Assembly: GCF_029633865.1 (NCBI RefSeq)
Contig: NC_079220.1
Span: 16,850,216-16,914,215 of the forward strand
DNA length: 64,000 nt
Origin: Lampris incognitus
Taxonomy: Eukaryota
Direction: 5' to 3'
Both the position numbers and the translations under genes were made by a program. This document shows, in pieces, positions 1-57,200 of this stretch. The notes beneath the pieces are model-generated. The model saw only the letters and a program-made list of their open reading frames with translations. It was not told the origin of the DNA and searched no databases. How positions within the stretch are numbered: position 1 is the stretch's first letter; each line of letters begins with the position of its first letter.

Positions 1-479
1 TCCCGAAAGTTGCTGTTGGTGGACAACTTGGAGCTAGGCAAAGCAGCACGGACGTGCAAGGGGAACTGACGGAGGAACAGCTGGCCGAAAAGGAAGGCGG
101 GGTCGCACGAACCCAGCATACTCAGCATCTTGTCCATTAGCTCCGATGGCTTGCCGTCTCCTAAGCCTTGCAGCGAAAACAACCAGTCTGCCTACTCCAC
201 CTCTGCTAGCTCAAAAGCCTGCAGCAAGTGTCTTTTAATTGTACCGTACTTATCCACGGGCGGCGGGGCTTGCAGCAGGCCCAATGTCCGTGACGCCGTA
301 GATGTTCCGAGTGCCACCACGACGTAGTAGTACTTGCTCTCATCCACGGTGATGTTCCTAATAGTGAACTGGGCTTCGATGTGAGTGAACCATGCTGCCG
401 CAGCTGTTTCCCAGAAGTCGGGCAGTTTGAGCGTGACGGCATTAGTCACTGCTGCTGCACTGGTAGCTTCGTTCTCCAT
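1..479 (-). mobile_element. LTR-retrotransposon gag-like ORF fragment (Retrotrans_gag-type), truncated at window edge
   Basis: minus ORF 192..479 with motif LPDFWETAAAAWFTHIEAQF...SKYYYVVVAL typical of retrotransposon gag N-terminal domain; ORF runs off the window start. Confidence 0.3.
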
Positions 480-988
480 GGCATTACGTCGGGGTCACCA
501 ATGTGGAGGATGAAAGAAAGGAGACGAGACCACTTCTCCTTTTGACCATACAGCCGTGGGGTCGTTTATGTCCTCCAACTCAAACTAAGTCAGCAGCTCA
601 TTCTGCTAAACCTCAGCCTCGTGTCTACCCACAATACCCTTTGCTAACCCCCGCCCACTGTCTTAAAGGGACCTTCTCTGGCCCGCATGGTGAATACGTA
701 ACCTGAAAGTAGGTCACTACAATATATTATTTTTACCTATACAGCATTTGCTTTTTTTGCCTATAGTGGCACCTAACAAACACCGGGGGGTTGGGGGGGG
801 GCACTCCATTTACAAATTGTAGCCACCAGGGAGAGCACTGCAAAAACCCATGTACAAGTGGCTTCATCTATATCATCTCAGTGAACCGCTTTCAATAAAA
901 TTAACTATCTCTTTTTCATCCCTTTTAGAGAGAGTCCCCCTGCCTTCTCTTCAACAGCTAGACGGTACAGCTTTCTCTGGGTTTCACA

Positions 989-1220
989 ATGGCCACCAGT
1001 CCAAGTACCACCCAGCCCCCTAGTGGAATGGAGGAGGCACAGCAGCTGAACCAACCAACCCCACAGCCAAACAGTGAAGCAGATCCCGCCCCGGTGATGT
1101 CCCAACCGGCCAATGCAGATCAACAAACTGCCGCCCAGACAGAAACCATCGAAGCCAACCATGTGGAGGAGAGCAACACTAAGGACCATCTGACGGTGAT
1201 CAGTGAGCAGATGGAGACCA
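989..1220 (+). CDS. prrt2: putative first coding exon of the PRRT2-like dispanin gene (S/T/P/Q-rich N-terminus); acceptor for 5'UTR at about 917, donor GT at 1221
   Basis: ATG at 989 in good Kozak context (cacaATGG) preceded by in-frame stop at 959; polypyrimidine+AG acceptor at 909-917; donor ACCA|gtaaat at 1220/1221 leaves phase 1, exactly matching the phase of the acceptor at 4509/4510; low-complexity proline/glutamine-rich like the PRRT2 N-terminus. Confidence 0.45.
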
Positions 1221-1852
1221 GTAAATAAAGTTTATAAAACAGTTTTCTGTCTGCTTCCCCATTCCACTGCATTAAATATTGTCCTCTACTCTGTGATCTC
1301 ACGGTGCTATCATTTTCAAATACTGGGTGCTGTGTGTGCATAATATAAACAGGCAATTGTTAAAGCTACAATCCTGAAGGTTGTTATTTTTTTTATTTAA
1401 TTTATTTTTTATAATTACTGACACCAATGGAAATCTTGTTGATTGCAGCAGTTTTTGAGCCAGCTGGATTCTAGAGATTGATTTGAGATGAAGAGTCGTT
1501 GGTGGTATTACATCAGCACCTTCTCTACTGCCAAGTAAAAAAACAAACAAAACACGGTTGAACCAGGGTTTTATTTTTTGATGTTGTAGTATCTGTTGCA
1601 CAGGTCTTCTATATGCTAGTCCTGTCATATCTTTTTGTTAGCCATGACAGTTTTGCCTCTTTCTTATTAAAGCTTGACCCTACTGGCCTTCTCCTGATGC
1701 ATTTTGCCGCTATGTTGAAGATGTAAAATGCTAACGTAATCTTTTTCCCTCCAATGTCTGACCCAACAATAACCATTAAAATGACCAACGACTAACACAG
1801 TCAAGATTTGGATAGTGGTGGAATTGCTATTGTCTTAAATACGTCAGTGATC

Positions 1853-2190
1853 CATCCATCCATCATCCAAGCTGCTTATCCCAACCGGGGTCATGGGATG
1901 CTGGAGCCTATCCCAGCAGTCATTGGGCAGGCAGGGAGACACCCTGGACAGGCTGCCAGACCATCACAGGGCTGACACATTCACACCTAGGGACAATGTA
2001 GTATGGCCGATTCACCTGACCTACATGTCTTTGGACTGTGGGAGGAAACCCATGCAGACATGGGGAGAACATGCAGACTACACACAGAGGATGACCCAGG
2101 GCGGCCCCCAAGGTTGACTACCCAGGGGATCGAACCCAGGACCTTCTTGCTGTGAGGCAACCACGCTAATCACTGTGCCACCGTGCCACC
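1853..2190 (-). mobile_element. tRNA-derived SINE (family 1; body ccatccattatccaaaccgcttatcc...; tRNA-like head at right end), full-length copy with about 11 bp TSD
   Basis: tRNA-like segment ggtggcacggtggcacagtgattagcgtggttgcctcacagcaagaaggtcctgggttcgatcccc on minus strand; direct repeat tacgtcagtga at 1841-1852 and 2191-2202 flanks the element; further copies at 29697, 49098 and 56446. Confidence 0.8.
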
Positions 2191-3595
2191 TACGTCAGTG
2201 ATAGGATGTATAAAAAAAAAAGTTTGTTTTCATGTAAATCTTCAGGATTGTACCTTTAAAGATGCACTTCCTGTTTTCCGTTTGGCCTAGTCACACCCTT
2301 TATTCTTCAAAATAGTCCATTTCACTTACTCATGATGTCCTTCCACATAACATTTTCCTCCCTTGTTTTCTTATCTGATGGTGATGTAACATACAAATAC
2401 TTATGGCAACTGCAGCAGTGCATTTTTTTTTCTTAATGTTTTGCTTTTATTACTTTTTTTTATTACTTTTGGTCCCGAAAATCCCAAGACTATAGATTTA
2501 TCTGTATTGTTTTTACCCACTGTTCTTCTCCTCTACCTCGGCTCATGGCTGTAAAGAACGATTGCCATACTTACTGTCATATTCTGGTTCTTTGAATCTG
2601 ACACAATAAGAGTCAGGAGAAACCGGAAAGTTGGGGGCGCTTCTTTGATAATAACCTACACACCTTTTCTGGTCATTGTTAGTGATGGGCAGTACAAGTC
2701 TTTTTCTCTAAATTTATTTCTGATTTTTCCCTTTTTTCTCCCAATTTAGTGGCCCATCGATCCCTATTCTAGTTCAAACACCCACGCTCGTACTGCATGC
2801 GTTCACCAACTGCATCTCTCCGGCCGGTAGTCTCGAAGGAGATGCCTCGCCACTTTTGTGACAAGGCGAATCCAGGCCGAACCACTGCTTCATACAAGTC
2901 TTTTTACTGTATTTGTATTTTCGAGTTAGTTCATTTAAATGAATTGAATTTTTCAAGATTTTCATTTCTTTTAAAAAATTCCTTTAACCTCTAGTGAGTC
3001 ATCAGTCGTGCATGTAGGCAGGAGCAGCCTTTAGCTTTCACCCCAAATGAGTGACTCATGAGAATTCAATACATTTGTTTAGCTTTCTTGGTATACTGAA
3101 AAGATTTGTTCAGAAAGATTAGTTCGTTCATTTTTGCCCAACATAACTGACTGAATGAGTGAAAGTCATGGAGAGTACACAATGGTGATGTTGTACTCTT
3201 CTTGGCCAATAAAGGCTCATACAAACTATGTGATTTTAGCCAATTTAGGGCTGTCCCAGGCAAATTTTTCAAGTCATGGACAACATTGTTCATTGTGAAC
3301 AAGATTCACTTGTATTGGGTGGTTCATTGTGACAGGGTTAAGCACAGCCAACAGAGAGCTGATCAACAGCTTTGAACAAGATGGCCAAAATTAGTGTACG
3401 GCGGCCCTAACTTTAAAGCAATGTTTCTTAATCTGGTTGTTAGGTATCACCAGTAATGCTGATTTTCCATTCTGCCAAGTACTTAATTACATTCACTTGG
3501 TGTGTCAAGTATTTCAGCTATTTAATCTATTTAATCTGTTCAATCAGGTTTTTTTTTAGACCTGGAACAGGTGAATGTACATAGTGTTGGACAGC

Positions 3596-3940
3596 ATGGT
3601 GGCCCAGTGGTTAGCGCTATCACCTCACAGCAAGAATGTCCTGGGTTCGAACCCTGGGATTGTCCAATCTTGGGGGTCGTCCCAGGTCGTCCTCTGTGTG
3701 GAGTTTGCAAGTTCTCCCCCTGTCTGCCGTGAGGTTTCTCCGGGTGCTCCAGTTTCCCCCACCATCAAAAAGACATGCATGTTAGGGTTAATACTCCTGC
3801 CTACACCCCTCTGACCAAGGCATGGCAAGACAAACTGAAGTTGGTCCCCGGGCGCTGCACAGCGGCTGGTCACTGCTCCTAGCTACACAGCTAGGATGGG
3901 TTAAATGCAGAAAGGAATTTCCCCACGGGGATCAATATAG
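3596..3940 (+). mobile_element. tRNA-derived SINE (family 1, second subfamily with different 3' body)
   Basis: head ggtggcccagtggttagcgctatcacctcacagcaagaatgtcctgggttcgaaccctggg (A/B box-like) then shared body; inverted copy at 47944-48312. Confidence 0.75.
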
Positions 3941-4085
3941 TATATATAGATATATAGGACAGGAACAGTAACATATAGGACAGGAACAGTTTTGATAGGG
4001 GAAAAAAATTAGGAGCTGATAAGGGCGAGATGCACGAAACAGGCCTATACTGCAATGTATTGAACTTTTTTTTCCCTGTATCAGT

Positions 4086-4087
4086 AT

Positions 4088-4128
<41 letters not shown>
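4086..4128. repeat. (TA)n microsatellite, about 20 units
   Basis: tatatatata run seen directly. Confidence 0.95.
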
Positions 4129-4132
<4 letters not shown>

Positions 4133-4475
4133 GTGTAACCCTTTCTTAGGCACTATTTATAGTGTATTTAGTGGAGCTATACTACAAATGTAGTGACCTA
4201 CCTGGCAGAATAGAAATCTAGCCTTACTGGTGGTACCCGAGGAGCAGGATTTAGAAACACTGCCATAAAACAATGGTTTGGGCTAATTTGGTTTAAATTT
4301 AAATATGCAACAGTTGCCCATTTATTCCTTTAAGACCAGCACAGCAAAAGTAGTGGCTAAAATTTGCAGCTGTTTACGTGTCAGCTGTTCCAGTTCTTCT
4401 GGTTTCTGGACCACAGGCCTGCTAAAGAACCACAGGGTTTTCAGATGACAATGAAAAATCAAAGCGAAAAGTTAA

Positions 4476-5731
<1,256 letters not shown>

Positions 5732-7435
5732 AAATTGCGAAAGACAGGACAGAAGCTAGCTAAGCTAGCAGCTAGCTAGCTAAGCTAGTTAGAACAACTA
5801 ACGTTAGCCTACAGTACGGGGCTACTACACGAGGTTAACACCAAAAATGCAAATATAAAGATGAACAATAAAGTTGAACAATAAAGATCTGAACAGATTA
5901 ATTATCATAATATTTACAAGAACCACCAAAAACTACTGTAGTAATCACTATTTTATCTTAGGCTAATCTCTTTTTCTTAGCTTTCTCATCTTTCACTGCG
6001 CCTCGAATACCAAAAGGTATGATCAAGGATCGGAAAGGCTGAACTGGTGTTCTCTGATTGGTTAGACGGGTGTCAATCATTTTCAGGTCGAGGAAAGACT
6101 GGGTCACTGGGTGGGCATTAAAACGCGTCATAAACCATAACTGTCCAATCAACAAAGTGTAAGGTACTTCTTCAATTTACATTCACTTACATTGGATTAG
6201 TTAAACGGAACGTTCCCCTGTGTCACCTGAAGAGGACGCTGTGTTGCACAAACCCCACGACACTTTTTTAACAGTGACACTGATTCACAGAGGAAACAGT
6301 CATTCTAATGAAATGTTGGCATCTAAAAAATGTTTTATGTGATATGTGTGTTATGTTTTTTGTTTATTTATTGGTGCAGCACTGCTTCACCTGTTAGCTT
6401 ATAGAAACCTCATCTGGTTTGTAGGTGTGTGTGTTGTGTGTGTTTATTTGTGGTGCTGCAAAGTTCTGCTGCTTGGCTTAAAGGAAAATTCTGTGTTTTT
6501 TACAACTTCGGTCTTACTTTCATAGTTTTTAGCCATTGTGCACATCGGTTATGATCATTTTACTCAACGGCTTCGTTGTGAAGATTTTGGATACGGGACC
6601 ACGATTGGACAGAGCTTTACATGTGCCTCTTACGGGGCAAACGAACACAACGGCCAGACATGTCTCAGAAAGTTCTGTTTAATCCGAAACGATCTAAACC
6701 CCACATCTGGAAGTAAAAACAAAAAGTGAAATATAAAAGTTAGTTATGACTCAAAATGTCCAATATTACCAACGGTCTGATTGCTGAGCTACTTCCTGGT
6801 TCAGCTTGCGGGAATAACCTGTACTAACCACGGATATATACATACATCCGTTGATAGACCACATGGCCAGCGCAATTGACCCTTCGCTAAGCCCCCCCCC
6901 CCCCTTAGTTACTGTTGTTACTACCTTAACTACTGACCGTCAAGCTTTACCATTATTTTACGGTTAATAAAAGCAATTACTTACCTTGGAGCAGACAAAG
7001 CTGTGCTGGTTGATCTTTGAGGGGTTCAACCGGATTTGAGGACGTCCACGTAGCTTATCCACAGCCTACACTTCTCAGGGTTTAATTTTGGTTTTGGAAA
7101 GGGAAAAACGTATATTGTGGCGGACACTGGGGGTTGTGCCTCTCACCCACAATATCTCCTTCCAACCTCTTCAGGTAACGAGTGTCACTGTTACAAGTGC
7201 CCCAGGCACAACGTTTAACCACCTATCTAGCTAAAAGTCCACAAAACCAGCTCGAAAATGAAGAAAGTCTGAAACTTTTGTATCGGAATCAACGGAGCGC
7301 CGCCATGGAAGTGTCGGACCTCTGTAGGCGCCTGTCCTATGCTGCGCTGTGACTGGCCAGTCTGCGTTTCGGGGGCATGGCTTATCGAAGGGGTTTCCGC
7401 CTTTATTAGCTAGCGAAGGCAGGGGAGAGAGGGGA

Positions 7436-7590
7436 TGACATGCGGCAAAGGGCCGGATTCGAACCAGGCCGCTGCGGTAAGGACTCAGCCTTATGTGGTA
7501 CGTGCTTTTTTTCCCTCATTTTTTTTATTGTTTAACATTTTTATGGGGTACATGCTCTACCAAATGAGCCACCAGGGCACCCCCCTATTG
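7436..7590 (-). other. tRNA-like sequence (D-arm and T-arm-like halves) split by an A-rich insert; probable SINE head or tRNA pseudogene
   Basis: minus strand reads GGGGGTGCCCTGGTGGCTCATTTGGTAGAGCATG ... GCAGCGGCCTGGTTCGAATCCGGCCCTTTGCCGCA with GGTTCGAATCC box-B-like motif. Confidence 0.25.
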
Positions 7591-8319
7591 AGAAGATTGA
7601 AGGACTGTGACCATAGCAGACTCCACTGTAAAGCTGTGTCCAGTGGTGATCATGTCCAAAATCTTCAAAATGAAGCTGGTAAAATGGCATCATAATTTAT
7701 GTGCACAATGGCAAAAAAAAAAACAAAAAAAAACTTTTAAGACTGACAGAAAAAAGTTTGTAATGACCAGAGCGTCATCTTCCTCTCACTTTGGCTGAAG
7801 ATCAATCTAACACCACATAATCATTTTGGTCAGGACTTCATTCATTCATTTTCATTTAATGTCCTGTCTTCATCTTTATCCTCAGCCTTGCTAGTCTTTA
7901 ATCCAAATGAACTCATTAAGACTTAAGTAACACTGCGCAAAGACTCATTGCCTTCCAGTGACACTGATAGAGGATGGACCCTCGCTGACCTCTTCATAAA
8001 CCTCAAGCCGAATGAAGAAAAATGTTTGAAGGCTTTTATAGTTTAGAGGTACATTTATGAGATGGAGCACATGATGAATGAGCTCACGGTAAATTATCAA
8101 GCACATCTTTAAATGTTGCATTCGGCCTTATGAGGTTACCGTGTTGCTGTGGCAATGTGTACACACGGCATGGGTGTCACTGAACTCCACAGAAGTGAAA
8201 GTGCCAAAAACTAGGCGGCCTTGTGTGTACACCAGTTCAGCGCCACAGAAGAAGAGTGGTTGCATCATTTTCTTCATCCTGTTTACTGTTTTTCTTCTTC
8301 TACTTCTTCTTCTTTGCAG

Positions 8320-8452
8320 TCACGGAACAGTTTGCAGCAAGGCAACATCGACGGAGCACGGCGTTTAGGCCGCAACGCCATGTTGCTGTCAGTCGTCTCG
8401 CTAGTGGGCGGGATTGCCATCATCGCCGCAGCCATCGCCCTCAACTGGGGAT
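8320..8452 (+). CDS. prrt2: PRRT2-like dispanin coding exon: [18 protein letters not shown] motif plus second transmembrane helix; may read through to stop at 8571 or splice at GTGAGT 8453
   Basis: acceptor ttcttcttctacttcttcttctttgcag|TCA at 8319; translation [44 protein letters not shown] closely matches human PRRT2 [44 protein letters not shown]; phase 0 join with exon ending 4802 gives ...FSVM|SRNSLQQ as in PRRT2. Confidence 0.8.
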
Positions 8453-8584
8453 GTGAGTACACCCCTTCACACACTTCTCCCGTTGTGTGTTTTTCTGTCA
8501 CGCCTGTGAAAATACTCCTTATTTGCGGTGTTGAGACAAAATCACAACGGGTGAGATTTTACCGAGGATAAGAATTAGCTTTAA

Positions 8585-9035
8585 GGGGGCGTCCGGGTAG
8601 CGTAGCGGTCTATTCCGTTGCCTACCAACGCGAGGATCGCTGGTTTGAATCCCCGTGTTACCTCCGGCTTGGTCGGGCATCTCTACAGACACAGTTGGCC
8701 GTGTCTGCAGGTGGGAAGCCGGAAGTGGGTTTGTATCCTGGTCGCTGCACTAGTGCCTCCTCTGGTCGGTCGGGGCACCTGTTCTGGGGGGGCGGGGGAC
8801 AGCGTGATTCTCCCACAAGCTACTCCCCCTGGGGAGGCTCCTCACTGTCAGGTGAAAAAATGCGGCTGTCGACTCCTCATGTATCGGAGGAGGCATGTGG
8901 TAGTCTGCAGTCCTCCCCAGATCGGCAGAGGGGGTGGAGCAGAGACCGGTATGGCTCAGAAAATAGGGTAATTGGCCAAGTTCAATTGGGGAGAAAAAGG
9001 GGGAAGGATAAAAAAAGAAGAAAAAAGTTAAAATG
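8585..9035 (+). mobile_element. tRNA-derived SINE (family 2; head GGGGGCGTCCGGGTAGCGTAGCGGTCTATTCCGTTGCCTACCAAC...GGTTTGAATCCCCG)
   Basis: tRNA-like head with box A/B, conserved body ...gtaattggccaagt.caattgggga, A-rich tail; five copies in the window (8585, 9531, 10018, 24204, 63085). Confidence 0.8.
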
Positions 9036-9530
9036 GTGGATGGGGTGGATGTATAGAAAGCATGAGAAGTGGCTGAATTAAATCTTAGAGGTGACGTTTT
9101 GATGTTTGGATTTGAGAGGAGATCTGAGGGAAAGAGACTCCATGAGGAGGATATGTTTCTACCAGACAAGACAAGACAGGGTCTGGGGTGGGTTGGGGGT
9201 AGCTGGGTGGGGTCTGACTTCAAACAGACTGGTGATGGGTTAGGCAGGAATGAATAAATCAGTCACTTAAAGCTGCAGTCTGCGACATTTCTCCATCAAA
9301 CCTCTCAATGGGCCGTTATCTAATCCATTTGGAACATGATGATGATGTTGTGGTGATCAGTTGGCCCCACAATCAGTTTTCCGGTGGAACAGTGTTGTCA
9401 TGTGGTTGGATGTAGGAAACAGAGAAACAGACCTGATAACAGACTACAAACAAAGTGTAGCAGCAATTATCGCTGGTGTGTGGTCAGCTAAGCAGAAAAC
9501 AGTTCCCACCCTTATAAAAATGGATCCCCG

Positions 9531-10015
9531 GGGGCGTCCGGGTAGCGTAGCGGTCTATTCCGTTGCCTACCAACACGGGGATCATTGGTTCGAATCCCCG
9601 TGTTACCTCTGGCTTGGTCAAGCGTCCCTACAGACATAGTTGCCCGTGTCTGTGGGTGGGAAGCCGGATGTGCGTATGTGTCCTGGATGCTGCACTAGCA
9701 CCTCCTCTGGTCAGTCAGTCAGTCAGTCAGTCAGTCAGTCAGTCAGTCAGTCAGTCAGTCAGTCAGTCAGGGCGCCTGTTGGGGGGGGGGGGACTGAGGG
9801 GAATAGCGTGATCCTCCCACATGCTACATCCCCCTGGTGAAACTCCTCACTGTCCGGTGAAAAGAAGTGGCTGGCGGCTCCACGTGTATTGGCATGTGGT
9901 AGTCTGCAGCCCTCCCCGGATCGGCAGAGGGGGTAGAGCAGCGACCGGGACGGCTTGGAAGAGTGGGGTAATTGGCCATATGCAATTTGGGAGAATAAAA
10001 AAAAAGGGGGGGGGA
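9531..10015 (+). mobile_element. family-2 SINE copy carrying an internal (CAGT)n expansion
   Basis: same head/body as 8585 copy; (cagt)15 at 9706-9767 replaces the short ggtcggtcgg segment of the other copies. Confidence 0.8.
9706..9767. repeat. (CAGT)n tetranucleotide microsatellite, about 15 units, inside SINE
   Basis: cagtcagtcagt... run seen directly. Confidence 0.95.
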
Positions 10016-10017
10016 GG

Positions 10018-10470
10018 ATCCCTGGGGTGTCCGGGTAGCATAGCGGTCTATTCTGTTGTCTACCAACACGGGGATCCCGGTTCGAATCTCTGTGTTGCCT
10101 CCGGCTTGTTCGGGCGTCCCTACAGACACAATTGGCCGTGTCTGCGGGTGGGAAGCCGGATGTGGGTATGTATACTGGTCGCTGCAATAGCGCCTCCTCT
10201 GGTCGGTCGGAGCGCCTGTTCAGGGGGGAGGGGGAATAGCGTGATCCTCCCATGCACTACATTCCTCTGGCGAAACTCCTCACTGTCAGGTGAAAAGAAG
10301 CAGCTGGCGACTCCACGTGTATCGAAGGAGGCATGTGGTAGTCTGCAGCCCTCCCCGGATCAGCAGAGTGGGTGGAGCAGAGACCGGGATGGATCGGAAG
10401 AGCGGGGTAATTGGCCAAGTACAATTGGGGAGGAAAAGGGGGGAGAAAAAAAAAGAAAAGCAAAAGCATC
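10018..10470 (+). mobile_element. family-2 SINE copy, head-to-tail tandem with the 9531 copy
   Basis: starts 2-3 bp after the A-rich tail of the previous copy; same orientation. Confidence 0.8.
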
Positions 10471-10920
10471 TCCAGCTGAGTTGGTGACCTCCATTTTGCG
10501 AGTACAGCACCATAGCGCTGGCCTTGTGCCCTTTGGGAAGGGTATGCATCAGTACAAGACATTTTTTTTCTGTTTTCTTGTATTGTTGTTCTCATAATAC
10601 CCCCCCCCTCTGTAAACTGATTTTAAATAAAAGGAACACACACTTCTCCCTGAACATCTTTTTTTCCCCCCTCTCCTAGTGATATTAAAATCCTGATAGG
10701 TTGCCGTGGCAACCAGGATTTGGGATGGCAAGACCGACTTCACGACATCTGACCACCAAGACATTGTGACGCTCCTCATGTAATCACGGCTGTCCTCCAT
10801 CCAAGCACCTACAACCAAGGGGGGAAATAGAAGAAAAAGGAAAGAAATTGTTCCTATTTTTGCTGTTGTTTCTTGCTGCACGAGCATTGTCGGCTTGACC
10901 CCCCCCCCTCCCTCACATCA

Positions 10921-10950
10921 CCAACACACACACACACACACACACACACA
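10921..10950. repeat. (CA)n microsatellite
   Basis: direct. Confidence 0.9.
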
Positions 10951-11629
10951 GATTGCAAGGCACATGCAAGCTGTCTACCTCCCAACACAAGCTTACTACA
11001 ACCCTAACTGTTTGGATACTGCAGAAGAAAAGGACAAGACGCGTGATTGGCAACACGTAATCCCAAAAGAACTGTTCTCCCCCCCCCCCCATTCCCCTTG
11101 CAGCCTCCCACAAGTTGTTTCTCCTCCCCGCGCTCCTCCTTCAGTGCTGTTCATCGATGCTCTGCCCTGCGTGGCTGCTCGTCGCCCAACATCGGGTGTG
11201 CTCATCTGTTTGTTGAGGAAAAGAGACACCCGCCTCTCTTTTTCTGATGGGATTCTGCCGAGTCTCCACAACCGGAGGGACTGGAGGGACCGTTTCACTT
11301 TTAACGCCAAAAAAAGAAAAGAATAAATGAATGAATAAATGAAAAAAAGATAATTGACTTGAACTTTGCTCAACTTGGTTGTGTGGGATGGGATGGCGGC
11401 AGTGAGTCATCACCGGACTACAAGACAGATGGACGAGAACATGGTGGACTTGTTGGATTGGACTGTCTGATTCTTCTCTCTTCTTCTGACTGTGTGGGCG
11501 AGAGATGGCACAAAACAAACCAGAAAAGAAAAAAAGACTATAGACTGTACTTGGAAAAAGTGGTGGGCTGTTCATTATGACATTGTTCCTGTCCATGCTC
11601 ACTGCTCAGAGACCAACCAAGATGCAAAG

Positions 11630-11632
<3 letters not shown>

Positions 11633-11674
<42 letters not shown>

Positions 11675-11830
11675 TACTTCTTGTACTACAATCTTTGTGA
11701 GGACCCCTCATTGACTACATTCATTTCCTAGCCCTTAAACTAATCCCTATTCTGACCCTAACCCACAATCCCAAGTCTTTACCCTAAAATTGACCCGTAA
11801 AGAAGTGAGGACTGGCCAAAATGTCCCCCC
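11633..11830 (+). repeat. (CA)n microsatellite joined to a conserved about 160 bp unit (...ggacccctcattgactacattcatttcctagccctta...gaagtgaggactggccaaaatgtcc); interspersed repeat family
   Basis: same unit in inverted orientation at 19500-19772 attached to (TG)60, and partial copy at 31260-31440 next to (CA)47. Confidence 0.6.
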
Positions 11831-13009
11831 TTTGCAAAAACGCAAACACACAGACACACCATGACACCATCATAGAGAAAGCTGGGTTGTACATCAGTGA
11901 TGTTTTCTGTCTGACAAATAGAAAGAAAGATTTTGATCAAGAAAGAGAGAGAGAGGGAGTACATTAGAGAGGGTGTGTGTGTGTGTGTGTGCGTGCGTGC
12001 GTGCGCCGGTGTGTGGTGGGTTTGGAAGTGCTGGGTTGCAGTCGTTGTTTTTGCACACACTTGCGGGTGTCTGAAAGGGGTTGGTGTACTGATCTCTACT
12101 ACGACCCTCAGATTCAGAGTCCCCTCCCGTGTTTACGGCACTTTTCACTCAAAAACATGCAGCCTTTGACAGTTAAACAGGGAGGTTTACCCCGTAACAC
12201 TGAAAATACATTGTGGTCAAAGTGATTTTTCTGGTGTAAAAATATACACCATATGTTATAACCAGCACCCAGCAAGCAACTTAAATGAGCAGTTAAAGAG
12301 GATTTTACTTAAACATCAGCGTTGTTTTTTTTGGTGGGATGAATATTTTATTTTTCAACAGCAGATCTCTACCGCTGGATAAAACTGCTATGATATAAAG
12401 TGCATGCATATTTTGCAGTTAAAGTCAGAAGGTATTTCCATGTCTACAATGAAAAATGGTGACCAGTTTTCGACTGTTTTGATGGAGGTATCCCTGACGC
12501 ATTTAGGCAGTGGCAGTTCTAGCTTGTATGATGCCCTGGGCGAACCCCCCCCCCATTCAGCCCCCCGCCAACAAAAATTGTGTCTACCCCCCCCCACAAT
12601 GCCAACAAAAAAAGCACCGTTCTGAAATAACTGTAATTCTTATTCAGACATTTGCGGCAACACAAATAAATAATCATAACATTTAAACTATATAAATATA
12701 AAAACATAAGGCTCATAGATATCAAAAGGAAGAATCAAAGACAAATATAAACAAATTGTCCCAAATACTAATAAAGGAGAATTGAATTATTACACTATTA
12801 ACCCTATTGTTAACAAAAAACACAAATAAAACGAAATTGTACAAATCATATATCACACAAATACACAAACAGTATAACACACTTATAAAGAAGAGAACCT
12901 AATTATTACACTATTGCACTTCAAACAAGAAACACACAAACTGCACAATCTAAACCCTGACCTTTCTTGCCTCGCTTGATGGAAAGTCATCACTTCCGTC
13001 ATCATAAGT

Positions 13010-14596: not shown

Positions 14597-16206
14597 TTCT
14601 GTGTCTACTCATGACAGTGTGTACACGCAAACCGAAGACTTTTGAGGCCACCGTAACAGAACTGAATAAATACTTCATTTCTTACGCCTAACCCATGCAT
14701 GTTTACAGAAGTTATCAAAGAATGCGTTTACATATTATTGTAGCCTCAGTTAGCAGGAAAGCTAACTGAGTAGCACTCTGTAAATAATGGTATGAGATAT
14801 TGTAATATACTCCCCCTTGAATATCCCCTAAATATTCTCTTCCCATCTTCACTGAAACAGAACTAATCCACCATCAGCTTGGTGCCAAATAAGCATGCTG
14901 AGATGAACCATAATGTCAGAAGATGTTCTTGCTTTGAACCTTTGGGTTTAGTTGTCCCATTGGGTATGATGAGTGACAGTACGGTGCACCAATCAGAGTG
15001 CGTCGGTGGGTGTAGGCGTGAGGTGACATAAGGCCGGGAGGAGGAAGAGTCCCAAGCACCGCCTTCCATTTTGCACCCTCACCGACTATGTAGCATGCCT
15101 GTTTACTAATCACATTATGCAGAAATGGCTCTCGGCTCAGTGTCAATGCAAGTGCTAGCTTTCATGACTTTTGCTATTGTCGTACGTGTACACTATTTTA
15201 TATGGTATCTGCTTGCGCTACCTCTCGAAGTTGCCTCAACCTATGAGTGTTTGATAGAATAATGCCGCACATTAGTTTCACATCGACTTAGCTGATTTTT
15301 GACAGACTGTTAAATCTCTTGTGATATTGTTTTTATTTTGTTCTGCTGTGACACTACTGCTACTGATACTACTGGAGTTACTGGGTCTCCACCATTTCTT
15401 TAGTTGATATGGTGTAATTTTGATATAACTGCAGTTTTTTTATTGTACAAACTTAAAGAGTTACTGCATAGCACCAATATATGGCTTCTGTTCAATGAAA
15501 GGTATCAGTCCTGGTGGAAATCTCAGCACTCTGTGCGAATATGGTAATATCCTCATAGCAAATCTTCCAACAGTGCGCCCCTGCTGGTTGAAATCTGCCA
15601 CAGGCATGCAGTCCCTAACGCTTATGTGTCCAAGTATTTGAAGAATAACAATCTACTGTATATGCTGCGTAGGTATTGCATTTTGTGAGGTCAAGTTCAC
15701 GTGATCTAGACAAGAAGTTCAGTAGTGCTAGCTGGAGAAACACCGTTCTCTCTCATCAAATTTATTTGTGGTTACTCAGGTTTTCCTTCACTTTTTATTT
15801 TCAATCTTTTATAAAAGCACCTAAATATCCACTCTTGTATTTTTGTATCTCAAGTCTCATTGTGTGGATCTCCTTTCTATCTATGATACTCTTCTGTTTG
15901 TAATGCTCGATAATAACCTGCCTCCTCTTCCTTGTCTCGAGATGAGGAGGAGGATGCTGTTAGCATGAACAACCACAGACCACAGCCAGTTTCATTGTGT
16001 TGTCCTCTACTTATATTGATTGCTGCCATTTTGAATCCGAACTTTTTTTTTGGTGCCTGTGCATGCCTTAAAATGACCCTTTTGGAACAAATATGGGTGT
16101 TCACAACATGTTTATCAAAAGCACTGTTGATCTTGCCTACTGATATTGAATATTCTGATTGTGTTTGAAGGGAATAAACCCCAATTGAATACTATCAGGG
16201 TTGTAC

Positions 16207-22215: not shown

Positions 22216-23788
22216 TCATTGTGCCTGGTCCTCAGGCTCTGTATATGGTGGCTGAGTTGATTGTTCAGCTCTGTAGCCATCAGCGTCCCAGTTGGCCTTG
22301 GGGTTTTGCCGCTGGTCTTCACTCAGCGGGTGGTGCCTGTCTGGCTCTCTTCTTAGTAATAGGTGGTCCACATGATGTCTAAGCACCTGGCTTTCCACCT
22401 TCACTCTGTAGGTGAGAGGACATGTGCTGGTGACCCAAATGTGACCCAAATGTACCCATTTCTTATGGCTTGTGAAATCTCTTACCCATACTTCTGCACC
22501 TGATGCCAGTGTTCTGGTTGGCCTGGTGCTGTTTTTTCTACAGATCATGCGCTCTTGGTTCTGGAATACTTTAGCATGAGCATGCAGTCTTAGCAGGTCA
22601 AACCTGGTTCTGACAGGACGGCTGAATAAAATCTCTGCTGGTGAGCTGTCTGTTGCTGCATGTGGTGTTGATCTGTATACCGCCAAGAACCTTGATATGC
22701 GCATCTTTAGTGATCCTCCTGATCCCACGGTTTTCTTCAGGGCCCTCCTAACTGTTTGAACAGCTCTTTCAACTAACCCATTTGTGGAAGGCTTGTAGGG
22801 GGCAGATGTTATGTGTTTTATGCCATTGGATGTCAAAAATCCCTTAAACTCAGCACTCGTGAAAATTGCTGCATTGTCTGACACGACAGTATGGGGAAAG
22901 CCATGAGTGCTGAACATCTCCCTTAGGTGCTCAACTGTTGCTGCTGACATGGTTACTCGGACAGGGCAAACTTCAAGCCATTTCGAATGTGCGTCTACTG
23001 CTATCAGGAACATCTGCCCCAGAAATAGACCTGCATAGTCTATGTGAATGCGCGTCCATGGTTTACCAGGCCATTCCCAAGGTGAGACTGTTGTATACCT
23101 ATTGACACGTGGTACAGGCTTGCACTTTCAATTCTATTTCATTATCCAATCCAGGCCACCACATATGAGCTCTGGCTGTTGCCTTCATTCTCGAGATTCC
23201 TGGCTGTGGTTCATGAAGCTTCTCCAGCAGTATTTCACGAGCATGTGGTGGCACCACAACACAGAGTCCCCAGAGCAGAATGGCATCTTCTACACAGAGC
23301 TCAGCCTGCCTTCTGAAGAATGGACGTAAAACCTCAGCTGGGAAGGTGGCAGGCCATCCCTCTTTGACAAAGCGACACACTTTAGCAAGCAAAGGATCCC
23401 TACAAGTCCACTGCTTCAGCTGATGACTAGTAATAGGAGCAGTCTGAAGCTGTTTCAATAAGTATGTCAACTTGGTTGGCCTGTGTGTGTCCATGGGCAT
23501 TTCTGGGAGGGGAAGCTTGCTCAGGCAATCAGCGTTTGCAATGGAGGGTCCTAGCCTGTATCTGAGGACATACTGATATTGAGCAAGTAGTAGTGCCCAG
23601 CACTGAAGGCACGGTGATGCAGCTGGCTGAATGTTTTTAAGCTCACCTAGTAGACCCAGTAGGGGCTTGTGGTCAGTTTGGATGGCGCAGTTACAGTCAT
23701 AAACACATTGGTGGAACTTCTTCACAGCAAAAATTCCGCCTACACTCGAGTGATGTACCTTTGCCTTTGCGTCGCTCACGTAGTTCAC
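22216..23788 (-). mobile_element. LTR-retrotransposon pol fragment: RNase H end, integrase HHCC zinc finger and DDE core (Gypsy or BEL/Pao-type), frameshifted
   Basis: ORF 23099..23788 contains IQTDHKPLLGLL and ...HMWWPGLDNEIELKVQACTTCQ; ORF 22216..23013 contains IAVDAHSKWLEVCPV...TVVSDNAAIFTSAEFKGFLTSNGIKHITSAPYKPSTNGLVERAVQTVRRALKK (integrase core); no LTRs identified. Confidence 0.7.
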
Positions 23789-24203: not shown

Positions 24204-24975
24204 CGGGGGCATCTGGGTAGGGTAGCGGTCTATTCTGTTGCCTACCAACACAGGGATCGGTGGTTAGAATCCCCGTGTTACCTGGTCAGGCGTTCCCACA
24301 GACACAATCGGCTCTGTGCATAACTGTAGTCCACTGACTTCCGGTTTCTACTGCAGCGGTCATACCAGTTTCCTGTTTGTTGCCGTGTGCTATTGACAAT
24401 GGCATATTTTTCGCGATGCCTGCAAGATTTACCATGGATAAATGTCAACGACATGCACAGAACCAGGAAATGGGTGAAAAGTTTCAAGTTGTATCAAGTT
24501 ATGACCGGACAGACAGACGGACATAAAAGTTTGTCGACAATTCTGTGCATGTCGTTGACATTTATCCATGGTAAATCTTGCAAGCATCGCGAAAAATATG
24601 CCATTGTCAATAGCACACGGCAACAAACAGGAAACTGGTATGACCGCTGCAGTAGAAACCGGAAGTCAGTGGACTACAGTTATGCACAGAGTGGATTGCC
24701 TGTGTCTGCGGGTGGGAACCCGGATGTGGGTATGTGTCCTGGTCGCTGCACTAGCGCCACCTCTGGTCGGTCGGGGCGCCTGTTCAGGGGGGAGGGGGAA
24801 CTGGGGGAAATAGCGTGATCCTCCCAAGCGCTACGTCCCCCTGGTGAAAGTCCTCACTGTTAGGTGAAAAGAAGCGGCTGGAGACTCCACATATATGGAG
24901 GAGGCATGTGGTCGTCTGCAGCCCTCCCAGGATCAGCTGAGGGGTGGAGCAGCGACCGGGACGGAGAAAGAGGTA
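24204..24975 (+). mobile_element. family-2 SINE copy interrupted by a 390 bp foldback MITE
   Basis: SINE head 24204-24300 and body 24691-24975 are contiguous in other copies; intervening sequence is a hairpin element. Confidence 0.75.
24293..24690. mobile_element. foldback / MITE-like insertion: about 155 bp near-perfect terminal inverted repeats around a 78 bp loop
   Basis: left arm ctctgtgcataactgtagtccactgacttccggtttctactgcagcggtcatacc...catgcacagaa (24293-24447) and right arm 24540-24690 are reverse complements with one mismatch; generates the mirrored ORFs 24278..24487(-) and 24387..24818(+). Confidence 0.7.
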
Positions 24976-25087
24976 ATTGCAGCCTCGGCTCCAAGGCAAG
25001 CAATTTTGTTAGAGGGGCATTGTGAATAATGAGGGGGAGGGGAATATTAACATGGAAAATTACCAATCTGACCACTGTCAAAGGCAC

Positions 25088-29696: not shown

Positions 29697-30075
29697 TGGT
29701 CCATCCATCCATCCATTATCCGAACCGCTTATCCTGCTCTCAGGGTCACGGGGATGCTGGCGCCTATCCCAGCAGTAATTGGGCGGCAGGTGGGGAGACA
29801 TCCTGGACTGGCCGCCAGGCCATCACAAGGCCGACACACATGCGTACAAACATTCACGCCTAGGGACAATTCATTACGGCCGAGTCACCTGACCTGCATG
29901 TCTTTGGACTGTAGGAGGAAACCAGAGCACCCAGAGGAAACCCACGCAGACAAGGGGAGAACATGCAAACTCCACACACCGGGCAAGCCCAAGGCTGGAC
30001 TACCCCGGGGCTCGAACCCAGGACCTTCTTGCTGTGAGGCAACCGCGCTAACCACTGCGCCACCATGCCGCCCCA
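29697..30075 (-). mobile_element. family-1 SINE copy
   Basis: catccatccattatccgaaccgcttatcctgctctcagggtcacggggatgctgg...gcgccaccatgccgcc. Confidence 0.8.
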
Positions 30076-31054
30076 GTACCAAAGGTTTTCTACTTAATTA
30101 CATTCACCATGTTGTTCCAGGTCTAACAGCTCCCTGATGGGGGCTGGACCAACTGGAATAACATGGTGAATGTAATGAATGAACTACCTGATGGAACAGA
30201 AAACCAGCAGTACTGGTGGTACCTGAGGACCTGATTGAGAACCACTGATCCAGACCAGCCTTACACTCCAGGTCCACTTCTGTACTATCTTCATACATTT
30301 CAAACCTTAAATGCATGCTAACGCATTAAGAGGCACTCTTTGAAAACTGGCAGCACATTCAAGAAAAGCCCACTGTGAAATAAAAAAAGATGCAGTTATC
30401 GCATACTCCATATAAGCAACCTTAAAATGCTGGCAAATTTTCTCTAAAAATAAAGCCACTACTTTCTAAAATGGGACTAATTTGTCATTGTGACCGGGGC
30501 AGTTATCACAGCCATTTATCTCACGCTATCTACGTCAGGACTCCATTGGGGGTACACATATCGTCAATTGACTTTGGCCAAGCAGATGCAGATCATGAAA
30601 GGAGAGGCGGCTCCTCCTTTAATTCAATTTATTGATTAGATAATTCAGTCAAAAAGGGTTAATGAAATCCCCCATGGTTGGCTGTAATTCTCTCCAGCTG
30701 TCTCCTTCAATGCAGTTCTGTGTCCATCTTTTATAATCTCTCTTGCTCTCTTTCCGTCTGTTTTTTCTATCTGTCACTCATCGCTCTCTCTCTCTCTGTC
30801 CATCCCCCTTTTGTCTCTCTCGTAAATGTCCATTTAGATCATATGGGGTTTTGTTTTTTGCCCTCTCCAGAAGTAATTGATCCAAATCTAATTTTAAAAT
30901 TGTTGCTTGACAAGCAATCCATAAGATAAAAATAAATAAATCATGGTGTGAAAATAATCTTAACTGGAAGGACATTATGAGATTGCGCCAAGAAAGCAAG
31001 TAATTTTGTAAAAAAAAAAAAGTCTCCCTTTATCTCCCCAGTTGTATCCAGCCA

Positions 31055-31535: not shown

Positions 31536-31750
31536 GTAATTATGTTTGTGGCTACTACCACCTTGTGGCAGGCAGTTTCTCTTAGAGAAAGCTGTCGCCA
31601 TCCAGCAGATGGCGACACTTCTTCTTTTGCGTCTTCTGCTTCTTCTTCTGCGTTTTCTGTTTCTTGTTCTGCTTCTGCATCATTTTCCATATATGTGTTG
31701 CGCGTCCTCTTTCCCTGTGATAGCTACTGTACCATTTATGGTTTCTCAGA

Positions 31751-31937
31751 ATGACAAAACTACAGCTGTTGAACGCTTATTTAACGGAGCGTTTGGCGGA
31801 GGTGGTGAGGGAGATCCTGGACGTGGTGGGAGACACGGTGACGGAGTACCAGGAGGAGGCGGCCCGGACTCAGCGGGAGAACGAGAGCTTGAGGAAACAA
31901 CTCCGGGATCTTCTCCTGCTGGGGGACGAGACAGACT
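31751..31937 (+). CDS. first coding exon of a fish FiNZ-type zinc-finger gene (N-terminal FiNZ-like domain), donor GTGAGT at 31938
   Basis: MTKLQLLNAYLTERLAEVVREILDVVGDTVTEYQEEAARTQRENESLRKQLRDLLL matches the conserved teleost ZNF N-terminal pattern M..LQ.L...V.ERL.AA.EEI......T..EYEEE; ends at consensus donor (phase 1). Confidence 0.5.
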
Positions 31938-32384
31938 GTGAGTAAAAACACAGCTAGCGTTAGCATAGCTGGCTAACCAACGCTAACTTTCAAAATACCA
32001 ACAATAAAGTCAGGCAATCAATGTTTAGGAAAATTCTTCATGAACTCTAATCAACTAGAGATTAATGCTGAAATCCGCTGTCCCACCATCTGGCAGCAAT
32101 AGCTACAAACAAGTTTTTTCTTTTTCCTTTATTTAATTTTCCAAAGACGTAAACATACTGTACAAACATTTAAAACCCTGAGAGCAGGATAAGCGGTTTG
32201 GTTAACGGATGGGTGGAAACTTATAAAAAAACAAAACACAATTGCCAATCCAAATACGAATCTTAAGTATCGAGTACCGATCTGATCTTTTAGTTTTCCT
32301 GAACAGTCCAGACATAGACGTTAGTTTGGGGTCGATAGGCAAAATAATTGAGATAAAGTCAGTGCCTTTATGCATGCTTAATAA

Positions 32385-54841: not shown

Positions 54842-55941
54842 GGGCTACCAGGTCCACTATCCTTTTGGAGGCTCCTGAACAGCAGCAGTCCAGTAAACAA
54901 GAGGTGAGGTCTTCTTTAGCGGAGCCAGACTCGACTCTGAGCCAGCTCAATGAGGCACCGGGAAGGGCAGTTTGTCATTCTCATGAACAGGTAATGACTG
55001 TTAAACCGCTTCCAACGGAGAGCGAGACACCATCTGCACAGCTCCCCCTGGACCCCGAAGATAGACAGGAGCAAAATGACCAGCCACAACCGAAGCCTAA
55101 ACCTGAGCCTCAGCAGCAGGCTTTTGGAAATGTCCCATCTTGCTCCTATCAGACCTCTGTAAATACTGTCTCTGCCTCCGACCCTGACATACACACTGAC
55201 CCTCAACAGTGCATGGTTCAAACTCCACCTTTTCCCATAGTTCAAACACAGATAAAAGCAGAACCAGAGGAGTATGAGGTGTTGGCAACTAATGCTGAAA
55301 GTCACACAGACTCTGTATTCTCAGGCTCTTTGCCAAATCCTGGTCCCACACACAACCTCTTGGAGGTTTCTGGTTTTGGAAATGTACTGGATGCAGACAG
55401 AGAGGGGGCTGCCTGTGTAGAACGTGAAGTTCATCAAACCACGAAGAAGAGCACTTCGGATAGATTGCCTTTGAACACTGCTGTTGACAGTGACGTAGTA
55501 GCTGGTCAGAGGTGCGAAGCCAGTCATTCCTGTCCCCGCTGCAAGGAGACATTCGGCCTCGCTTCTAGCCTCCGACTGCACTTGGAGCAGAAGCGTTACG
55601 CCTGCGACTGGTGCTGCAAATCCTTTGCCCAGGTGACTGACCTACGGCGCCACCTGCGCACCCACACTGGGGAGAGACCCCATCGCTGTACCTTCTGCTA
55701 TAAGAGCTTTAGCCAGAGAGGCAATCTGAAGAGACACCTGCGCATCCACACAGGGGAGAGACCGTACAGTTGTCCTTACTGCTATCGGACTTTCAGTGAT
55801 GGGGACACCATGAAGAAGCACAAACGCACTCATTTTGGAGAGAGGCCCTACCGCTGCTTGCATTGCTCAAAGACATACGCTAGTGCCAGTGGATTGCAGG
55901 TTCATATAAAGAAAGATATGTGCTTCGTGTCCAACACGTGA
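54842..55941 (+). CDS. C2H2 zinc-finger protein, large 3' coding exon (acidic/SUMO-motif linker + 5-6 C2H2 fingers), acceptor AG at 54840-54841
   Basis: ORF 54805..55941; fingers [105 protein letters not shown] with TGERPY linkers; no in-frame ATG at a plausible start, polypyrimidine tract + cag acceptor at 54839-54841; motif IKAEPEE. Confidence 0.75.
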
Positions 55942-56379
55942 TGAGCCGATTCAGGACAGGGCAGCAAATTCAAGCAAGGTGGGACAATAGTTGTGTTACA
56001 GAGCAAATATGCGTCACAGCTCCAGCTGTATCCATGTCTCTAAATGTATTTATTTTTTCTATATTTCCTGTGTGTTTTGAATTCAGAGAAAAGGGAACCT
56101 ATAAGACTGTGATGTTCAGCGGCAACATTTGAAACCAGACCTACCCATGTTAAGAGACTGAGGACCGTTAGGTCCATCATAGTCCGGGTATAACATATAC
56201 GCAGGCGTATGTCCACTGTCTCTGCAGATAAAAATGTACAAGGCATAAAAGTGGACCACTGTAGCCATCCGCATATGTGCACCACACAAATTTTCTGTCT
56301 GCACATGTACATAACATTTGGGTTTTTCTTAGAAGTGCATTATGTCACACACCCCCAATATGGCTTACAGTGTCTTGAT

Positions 56380-57200
56380 GCATGGTGAATAATCCAGGTA
56401 AGGTAATCCAAGAAAGTTGAATCAGTTCATCTGGACACATTCATTCATTATCCAAACCGCTTATCCAACTCAGGATTGTGGGGATGCTGGAGCCTATCCC
56501 AGCAGTCATTGGGCGGCAGGCGGGGAGACACCCTGGACAGGCCACCAGTCCATCACTTGGCCGACACACACACACATTCACACCTAGGGACAATTTAGTA
56601 CAGCGATTCACATGACCTACATGTCTTTGGACTGTGGGAGGAAACCGGATCATCCGGAGGAAACCCACGCAAACATGAGGAGAACATGCAAACTCCACAC
56701 AGGACGACCCGGGACGACCTCCAAGGTTGGACTACCCCAGGGCTCGAACCCAGGACCTTCTCGCTGTGAGGCGACTGCGCCAACCACTGCTCCACCGTAC
56801 CGCCATCCGGACACAACGTTGGGGAAATGTTTCACCGTTCATCTAAGGGACTTCGTCAGTCTAAGCTGACTGCAGATATTCCCAGCCTTATAAAGAGCAC
56901 AGTTGCATAACTGCCGAAAACCAGTGCAGTTGCGTCATAACCCAAACCAGTGAACAGTTTCATATGCAGATTACCGTAACCATTAATTAGTGTTAAAATG
57001 AACCCTGTGTACTAGTCACAGAGGATTGGGGAATAGTTGCAATCACAGCATTGTAAGATAGTGACAGATGTACTCTCAGCCCCCCTCCCTCGATTCAGGG
57101 ATGGTCGTTAGTCAGGCTTCATTCTTGAAAAGTGGCCACTGGCCTGTAGATGGGTGTAGACTGTGGAGTCCTGGCCTGATGTGTTAGCTCTCCTGTGTTG
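56380..57200 (+). repeat. copy of the 32385 repeat family, split by SINE insertion
   Basis: repeat resumes after the SINE with duplicated (c/t)ggacaca target. Confidence 0.55.
56446..56804 (-). mobile_element. family-1 SINE with about 10 bp TSD
   Basis: atctggacaca / atccggacaca flank the insert. Confidence 0.8.

Follow-up and report, generated by a model that had tools for sequence, protein, structure and literature searches.

Which gene occupies positions 989-10696 (+) of a 64,000-nt stretch of the opah genome (Lampris incognitus, contig NC_079220.1, positions 16,850,216 to 16,914,215; hereafter the window), and which of the dispanin paralogues does it represent? RefSeq gives its product (P0001) the name 'trafficking regulator of GLUT4 1' (TRARG1), whereas an original prediction made from the letters alone had described a three-exon, PRRT2-like dispanin gene. 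Our assessment, to which we attach a probability of roughly 85%, is that the locus is an intact and functional gene of four coding exons, and that it encodes a 224-aa PRRT2-type protein of dispanin subfamily B (CD225). The gene itself is ordinary, real and already annotated in RefSeq; what is added here is a corrected model and a paralogue assignment.

Gene model and terminal exon

For the first three coding exons (Table 1), the coordinates, splice sites, phases and translation given by the original prediction proved exact. Along its whole length, their 219-aa product matches P0001 with 100% identity, and residues 146-212 match the Pfam CD225 profile (PF04505, positions 1-67/68) with E=6.8e-24 and 84.2 bits against a cut-off of 27.1 bits; together, the RefSeq identity and the Pfam match exclude chance for exons 1-3. 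The initiator ATG had been placed in Kozak context, and it indeed reads caca/ATGG (slashes mark boundaries here and below): A occupies position -3 and G position +4, and 10 codons further upstream there is an in-frame stop. Orthologues of the window protein begin with MATSPS. Exon 1 ends in phase 1 (ACC A/gtaaat) and is joined in frame to exon 2, as predicted, and exon 2 in turn lies between the acceptor cttcccag/ and the donor GTG ATG/gtactt (phase 0). Exon 3 follows a long pyrimidine tract and the acceptor tttgcag/, is free of stops, and reaches the consensus donor GGA T/gtgagt in phase 1. All introns of the gene are GT-AG, the junction phases are 1/0/1, and the sizes of about 3.3 kb and 3.5 kb claimed for the first two introns agree with the lengths in Table 1.

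The three-exon model fails at its 3' end, where a terminal coding exon of only 17 nt had been left out. A six-frame search located the sequence ILKS plus stop at 10682-10696. The exon context is ttttttcccccctctcctag/TG ATA TTA AAA TCC TGA, which with the T contributed by exon 3 gives TTG (Leu), Ile, Leu, Lys, Ser and a stop, and the LILKS tail brings the product to 224 aa. Exon models were obtained by an exhaustive GT-AG search for exon chains giving exactly the proteins in the window, in Anabas and in stickleback. The exon lengths are 232/293/133/17 nt in the window, 232/290/133/17 nt in the annotated Anabas orthologue and 148/290/133/17 nt in the annotated stickleback orthologue. Three junctions are common to all three species, namely ET/SNG (phase 1), FSVM/SRNS (phase 0) and NWG/LILKS (phase 1); the exon-1 donor GTAAAT recurs in both relatives, as does the 17-nt exon in the same position and phase. 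The search for homologues of the window protein returned 517 at E<=1e-3. The best 120 of these are 55-100% identical to the query, 69 of them span 100% of it, and about 90 have a C-terminus of the form xILKx; NWG-LILKS is the ending seen in most orthologues. The open phase-1 end of exon 3, the conserved 17-nt exon and the architecture of the orthologues thus indicate four coding exons and 224 aa, and exon 3 ends in phase 1 because a conserved micro-exon follows.

The end at 8571 in the original prediction is merely the stop met when exon 3 is read through its donor. This read-through (CEYTPSH..., stop at 8569-8571) was rejected as the true C-terminus: its 39-aa extension is not conserved, and in relatives whose models also read through, a stop comes after about 9 aa and the sequence is different. 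Such models exist for several species (P0002, P0006, P0007, P0087 and P0097), with tails such as CEYLPHLAF, CKYFQHQAV and RKCAQHLAF in place of LILKS; either the 17-nt exon was overlooked repeatedly in these models, or the tails belong to a genuine isoform that retains the intron.

RefSeq took a different route to a stop. P0001 has 263 aa; its exons 1-3 are those of our model, and they are followed by a terminal exon at 23196-23329 that is antisense to a Ty3/gypsy-type pol open reading frame (ORF) at 23099-23788 (-) with the Pfam domains RT_RNaseH and Integrase_H2C2. The ORF beside it, at 22216-23013 (-), carries the Pfam domain rve. No Pfam match was found in the ORF that contains the RefSeq terminal exon, and the C-terminus of P0001 is unique among the best 120 of the 517 homologues. 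Most likely, this exon reflects an annotation error or else belongs to a minor isoform of transposon origin. For annotation, the gain is that a 224-aa product ending in LILKS replaces one of 263 aa with a last exon that runs antisense to a retrotransposon.

That RefSeq leaves the conserved last exon unused, and that the introns are filled with repeats and 8-40 times as long as those of Anabas, could be taken as signs of a decaying or non-functional copy in which an intact ORF is coincidental. We regard such decay as extremely improbable. Frameshifts and stops are absent, every splice site is canonical, identity to the closest relatives is 74-76% with a nearly invariant C-terminal domain, and both a block in the presumed 3' untranslated region (3'UTR) and non-coding blocks further downstream are conserved. 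The expansion of the introns, moreover, is shared by the whole of this repeat-rich window.

PRRT2, TRARG1 or TMEM233

The predicted layout of the protein is a disordered N-terminal region of about 145 aa rich in S, P, Q and T, a hairpin (~150-175), a basic loop, a transmembrane helix (~196-219) and a 5-residue tail. The Kyte-Doolittle profile has two hydrophobic peaks, with centres at 159-165 and 200-215, and the short basic loop between them holds G-D and GxxxG. The N-terminal ~145 aa are presumed to be cytoplasmic and the hydrophobic hairpin to be re-entrant. In the dispanin family the loop splice site is conserved, with the two helices in separate exons, and a C-F-C motif in the first helix marks subfamily B (PMC3282796). 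The window gene has both, as the exon 2/3 junction FSVM/SRNS in phase 0 and as LSCFCPLWP. The original description of a PRRT2-like dispanin with a CD225 core that includes the SRNSLQQG signature holds. When functional residues were compared with the human PRRT2 set (PMC7665892, PMC11730294), R177, G183 and G187 of the window protein were found to correspond to R295, G301 and G305 of human PRRT2, all conserved in the loop, with G183/G187 forming the GxxxG.

To place the gene among the paralogues, we searched 1.84 billion cluster representatives with P0001, including its own tail, as the query, and took names from cluster members. Four kinds of teleost subfamily-B gene emerged. Two are of the PRRT2 type, namely the clade to which the window gene belongs (the window clade) and another (the second clade), marked by SRNSLEQGN...RLGRVAK and an INVKS tail; the other two kinds are trarg1a/trarg1b and tmem233. 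The trarg1a and trarg1b proteins start with MAINTDA and carry the ETEKLL motif, as in bird, lizard, mammal and bowfin TRARG1. Within the window clade, names in the homologue list are inconsistent, with TRARG1, PRRT2, TMEM233 and 'uncharacterized' all in use. According to the 2012 dispanin paper, subfamily B is restricted to tetrapods and was lost in zebrafish (PMC3282796). Database matches to genes of the PRRT2 type, the TRARG1 type and TMEM233 now come from all across the ray-finned and cartilaginous fishes, and a related protein from a hagfish, so that the tetrapod-only statement is outdated.

If the RefSeq and UniRef name of P0001 and many other clade members were right, the window gene would be the opah orthologue of TRARG1 (TUSC5), a regulator of GLUT4-type vesicle traffic. 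Simple identity offers this some comfort, since the core of the window protein is 70% identical to bird TRARG1 and about equally (70%) to mammalian PRRT2. Profiles built from 8-15 named sequences each do separate the candidates: the window protein scores 213.7 bits against non-teleost PRRT2 and 170.1 bits against the second teleost clade, compared with 141.7 bits (tetrapods only) or 138.5 bits (all) against TRARG1, which is 72 bits below PRRT2. The TMEM233 profile gives the lowest score, 104.2 bits.

Motifs point the same way. The pre-membrane motif GSPRPSLSRQPS, compared with GSPRGSLSRHPS of Marmota PRRT2 as the mammalian reference, and the motif V-x-E-K-x-E-x-NG are common to the window protein and to tetrapod, bichir and ray PRRT2, with VISEQMETSNG of the window protein aligning with the EK-type motif of the latter three groups. 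TRARG1 has an N-terminal E[TM]EKLL motif and, before the membrane segment, SPSR-x-S-x-x-RASS. Teleost trarg1a/b proteins carry them, as do the TRARG1 proteins of mammals, birds, lizard and bowfin, and both are missing from the window protein. The SLNSYN/ALNSYN loop of the TMEM233 type has no counterpart either, the window protein having 224 aa, an N-terminal region of ~145 aa and an SRNSLQQG loop.

Three neighbour-joining (NJ) analyses were run, on 96, 173 and 206 columns with 300-500 bootstraps. All three trees contain a split between PRRT2-type sequences and TRARG1 plus TMEM233 (plus hagfish), at a bootstrap support of only 55-72%, and the window clade groups with TRARG1 in 0-0.2% of bootstraps. 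The names in the window clade thus conflict with one another, ETEKLL-bearing genes exist separately in teleosts (trarg1a/1b) and bowfin, and both the profile score and the bootstraps speak against TRARG1, which makes that identity very unlikely. From profile scores, motifs and trees we judge that 'PRRT2-like' is right and that the RefSeq product name 'trafficking regulator of GLUT4 1' is wrong for the window clade. The best match does belong to a different paralogue in a nominal sense, as RefSeq calls it TRARG1, but profiles, motifs and trees disagree with that name.

With human and mouse PRRT2 (DSPB3), which in neurons regulates both the assembly of SNAREs and the slow inactivation of voltage-gated sodium channels, the window protein shares the CD225 domain, the CFCP of the first helix, the loop SRNSLQQG-x-[VI]DGA-x-RLGR with its central Arg, the GxxxG, about 70% identity over a 74-aa core, the motifs GSPR-x-SLSR-x-PS and EK-x-ENG, and the best profile score. 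A phase-0 intron lies just before the SRNS codons in the window gene, as it does in human PRRT2. Differences are found at both ends: the N-terminal region has ~145 aa in the window protein and ~265 in human and mouse PRRT2, with only two short motifs alignable, and the tail is LILKS rather than VYK. TRARG1/TUSC5 (DSPB1) and TMEM233 (DSPB2) likewise are subfamily-B dispanins, in which GxxxG, the CFC motif and the two helices of the CD225 core recur; TMEM233, however, is a protein of ~100-140 aa that all but lacks the N-terminal region, and its profile score is 110 bits under that of PRRT2.

Two teleost PRRT2-type clades and a possible role

At the family level, then, profiles, motifs and trees uphold the description 'PRRT2-like', but it does not extend to positional orthology with human PRRT2, because the slot next to kif22 belongs to the other teleost clade. 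In sea bass and Gouania the gene of the second clade lies directly downstream of, and on the same strand as, a Kinesin+HHH_3 gene (KIF22-like), and in sea bass a C2-domain gene lies beyond it. Two catfish gene models fuse the second-clade gene to 'KIF22', an alligator model fuses MAZ to PRRT2, and recent NCBI annotations give the second clade the symbol prrt2. It is this second clade that is the positional counterpart of human PRRT2. The KIF22-(MAZ)-PRRT2 neighbourhood of the 16p11.2 type is not found at the window gene: within the window the only neighbouring gene is a C2H2 zinc-finger gene, downstream. Window-clade orthologues also have a C2H2 zinc-finger gene beside them in Anabas and stickleback, and in stickleback a Methyltransf_16 gene and JMJD6 as well, the latter recognised from an exon-encoded 115-aa stretch that matches JMJD6 structures (E=1e-63).

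The two clades are alike in family, in length (~215-235 aa for the 'prrt2' clade, represented by P0146 of Pangasianodon, P0383 of Dicentrarchus and P0369 of Polymixia), and in the motifs NGR-x-R-x-GSRSGS and terminal x-[IV]-[LV]-K-S. Their genes occur in the same species on different chromosomes. Core identity between 'prrt2'-clade proteins and the window protein is 65-69%, and the clades are told apart by SRNSLEQGN as opposed to SRNSLQQGN in the window clade, RLGRVAK as opposed to RLGRNA, NIVGFVYS as opposed to NIVALTFS, and, in our alignment, a one-residue gap in the last helix. Neighbours differ too, being KIF22 and a C2-domain gene in the 'prrt2' clade and the zinc-finger gene, a METTL23-like gene and JMJD6 in the window clade.

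Copy counts bear on the origin of the pair. Among the best 120 matches to a bichir PRRT2 query, gar, bowfin, bichir, reedfish, lungfish, the sharks and each of two sturgeon species are represented by a single PRRT2-type protein, and tarpon, Aldrovandia and Arapaima by two each. The 'type 2' copies of these basal teleosts have the window-clade features NIV[GA]LTFS and INWGLILKS. These counts make it probable that the two teleost PRRT2-type clades are copies kept from the teleost whole-genome duplication. We lean, a little less firmly, towards the window clade being the less recognised PRRT2 co-orthologue, one that moved from the kif22 locus, is inconsistently named and may have partitioned or altered the function of ancestral PRRT2. 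The other copy, prrt2 next to kif22, would have kept the ancestral 16p11.2-like position.

An older origin would have the window clade predate the teleost duplication, for example as a fourth product of the two rounds of vertebrate genome duplication or as an early ray-finned duplicate, with losses in tetrapods and non-teleost fishes. The two teleost clades are not well-supported sisters in the NJ trees, one NJ tree puts the window clade outside all other PRRT2-type sequences, and the stickleback neighbours (METTL23-like, JMJD6) are of the human 17q25 type rather than that of 16p11.2. Yet the single PRRT2-type protein per non-teleost and the two per basal teleost lineage among those best 120 matches speak against this history, the C-terminus of the gar and bowfin proteins already has the form I[IM][LV]KS, as in both teleost clades, and faster evolution of the window clade (RLGRNA vs RLGRVA) can account for a basal pull in distance trees. 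On balance we consider the older origin unlikely, and retain the teleost duplication as the probable source of the two copies.

The most likely role of the window protein, by analogy with its homologues, would be that of a neuronal membrane adaptor restraining SNARE assembly and/or the availability of voltage-gated sodium (Nav) channels. GxxxG and G305 drive the oligomerisation of PRRT2 (PMC7665892), and the window protein would oligomerise through its GxxxG, as do mammalian and zebrafish PRRT2. It would bind Q-SNAREs such as SNAP-25 and so restrain vesicle fusion, and/or, as an auxiliary subunit of voltage-gated sodium channels, it would favour their slow inactivation. For Nav1.2, the C-terminal region of PRRT2 is necessary and sufficient to promote slow inactivation, and the effect is also obtained with a zebrafish PRRT2 and, under heterologous expression, with TRARG1 and TMEM233 (PMC13568701). 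If there are two co-orthologues between which the role is divided, or one of which has changed it, loss-of-function or Nav-channel studies of a single fish 'prrt2' gene could be buffered or confounded by the other gene. Fish models of PRRT2 disease and Nav regulation should bear in mind that teleosts have two PRRT2-type genes in addition to trarg1a/b and tmem233.

Several observations weigh against parts of this picture. The junction 8452^10680 is proposed on the strength of conservation, and RefSeq picked 8452^23196, possibly from real reads. One residue of the functional set differs, A320 of human PRRT2 being Ser202 in the window protein, which is also a small residue. The neighbours of the window clade are not 16p11.2 genes, and synteny neither confirms nor excludes an origin by genome duplication. 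Monophyly of the two teleost clades has an NJ support of 32-47%, and the grouping of the window clade with the basal-teleost 'type 2' genes one of 21%. Finally, any function of the window clade would be taken purely from homology.

Repeats, conserved blocks and neighbouring genes

The features of the locus and its surroundings are collected in Table 1.

Table 1. Features of the PRRT2-type locus and its surroundings, numbered from the first letter of the window
Feature	Position	Strand	Remarks
Coding exon 1	989-1220	+	232 nt; Met1 to first base of Ser78; phase 1 out; S/P/Q/T-rich N-terminus
Intron 1	1221-4509	+	3289 bp; GT-AG
tRNA-derived short interspersed element (SINE), first copy of ~340-bp repeat	1850-2190	-	tRNA-like head on minus strand; interspersed repeat
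Second copy of ~340-bp repeat	3593-3937	+	Intron 1; opposite orientation; 85% identical to 48295-47955, 81% to 2186-2054
(AT)19 microsatellite	4090-4127	.	Intron 1
Coding exon 2	4510-4802	+	293 nt; phase 1 in, phase 0 out; GSRSGS motif and first hydrophobic segment; ends ...LTFSVM
Intron 2	4803-8319	+	3517 bp; splice site conserved across dispanins, in the loop that links the two hydrophobic segments
Decayed transposase-like remnant (hAT/ZMYM1-like)	4865-5731	-	Intron 2; antisense
Coding exon 3	8320-8452	+	133 nt; phase 0 in, phase 1 out; codes for the second hydrophobic segment as far as ...NWG
Intron 3	8453-10679	+	2227 bp; outside the three-exon model
Terminal exon 4, coding part	10680-10696	+	17 nt; finishes Leu220, then ILKS and TGA; preceded by long pyrimidine tract and tag
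Conserved block, presumed 3'UTR element (placement inferred)	10836-10883	+	~140-190 nt past the stop; 88-93% identical in Anabas (L001) and stickleback (L002)
RefSeq terminal exon of P0001	23196-23329	+	ctcgag/AT TCC TGG...; YSWLWFMK...EEWT and stop
C2H2 zinc-finger gene	first exon 31746-31945; last exon ~54880-55956	+	~23-kb transposon-filled intron between

The introns of the opah gene are simply inflated by repeats (SINEs and decayed transposons), the corresponding introns in Anabas and stickleback being ~80-670 bp long. Two SINEs and a (TA)n run had been claimed for intron 1, and two copies of a ~340-bp repeat and an (AT)19 run are indeed there; the first copy is flanked by a 10-bp target-site duplication, tacgtcagtg, at 1840-1849 and 2191-2200. 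Further copies of this repeat lie at 29703-30072, 47955-48295 and 56438-56804 in the window. The SINE calls are based on copy number, target-site duplication and tRNA-like boxes read by eye; neither ARAGORN nor Rfam found a tRNA or RNA family in 1-12000, and the degenerate SINE head escapes both. Intron 3 holds three SINE copies of ~450 bp with a tRNA-like head, at 8585-9019, 9522-9998 and 10016-10457, in the same orientation and 73-86% identical, the second of which includes a (GTCA)15 run at 9710-9770. More copies of this element lie at ~24205-24979 and 63093-63483.

An antisense hAT remnant had likewise been predicted in intron 2. The antisense ORF at 4865-5332 matches Pfam DUF4371 with E=1.6e-7 and 31.9 bits, just below the cut-off of 32.1 bits, and a second antisense ORF at 5426-5731 has no Pfam match. 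DUF4371 is a domain of ZMYM1-like hAT-derived proteins, and the label 'hAT remnant' is reasonable, if weakly tested. Also in intron 2, a short antisense ORF at 7082-7222 (-) starts with MVKRCAWGTCNSDTRY and by eye has the look of a THAP-type zinc finger, which hints at another transposon fragment in this intron. An ORF at 192-479 (-), a short way before coding exon 1, matches DUF7041 (E=1e-13) and probably comes from a retroelement that landed close to the promoter or 5'UTR. The remainder of the window is mostly transposon debris, including gypsy-type pol, Tc1/mariner and long interspersed element (LINE)-like ORFs.

Downstream of the gene, three further blocks (14696-14787, 15087-15236 and 15818-16192), like that at 10836-10883, are 68-97% identical to, and colinear with, sequence downstream of the Anabas and stickleback orthologues. 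Their tblastx matches fall in several frames and on both strands, which speaks for non-coding sequence, either enhancers or an extended 3'UTR.

The first and last exons of the zinc-finger gene of the window are orthologous to those of the gene beside the PRRT2-type locus in Anabas and stickleback. The N-terminal part of its product, which is encoded by the first exon and includes MTKLQLLNAYLTERLAEVVREILDVV, presumably resembles the fish-specific FiNZ domain. MAZ was considered as the identity of the gene and dropped on the basis of the MAZ sequence. Anabas and stickleback have the zinc-finger gene upstream of the PRRT2-type gene and head-to-head with it, whereas in the opah it lies 21 kb downstream on the same strand. 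A conserved block at 30577-30706 is inverted in the opah relative to Anabas (L001) and stickleback (L002), and together with the differing gene order this points to a local inversion or transposition in one lineage.

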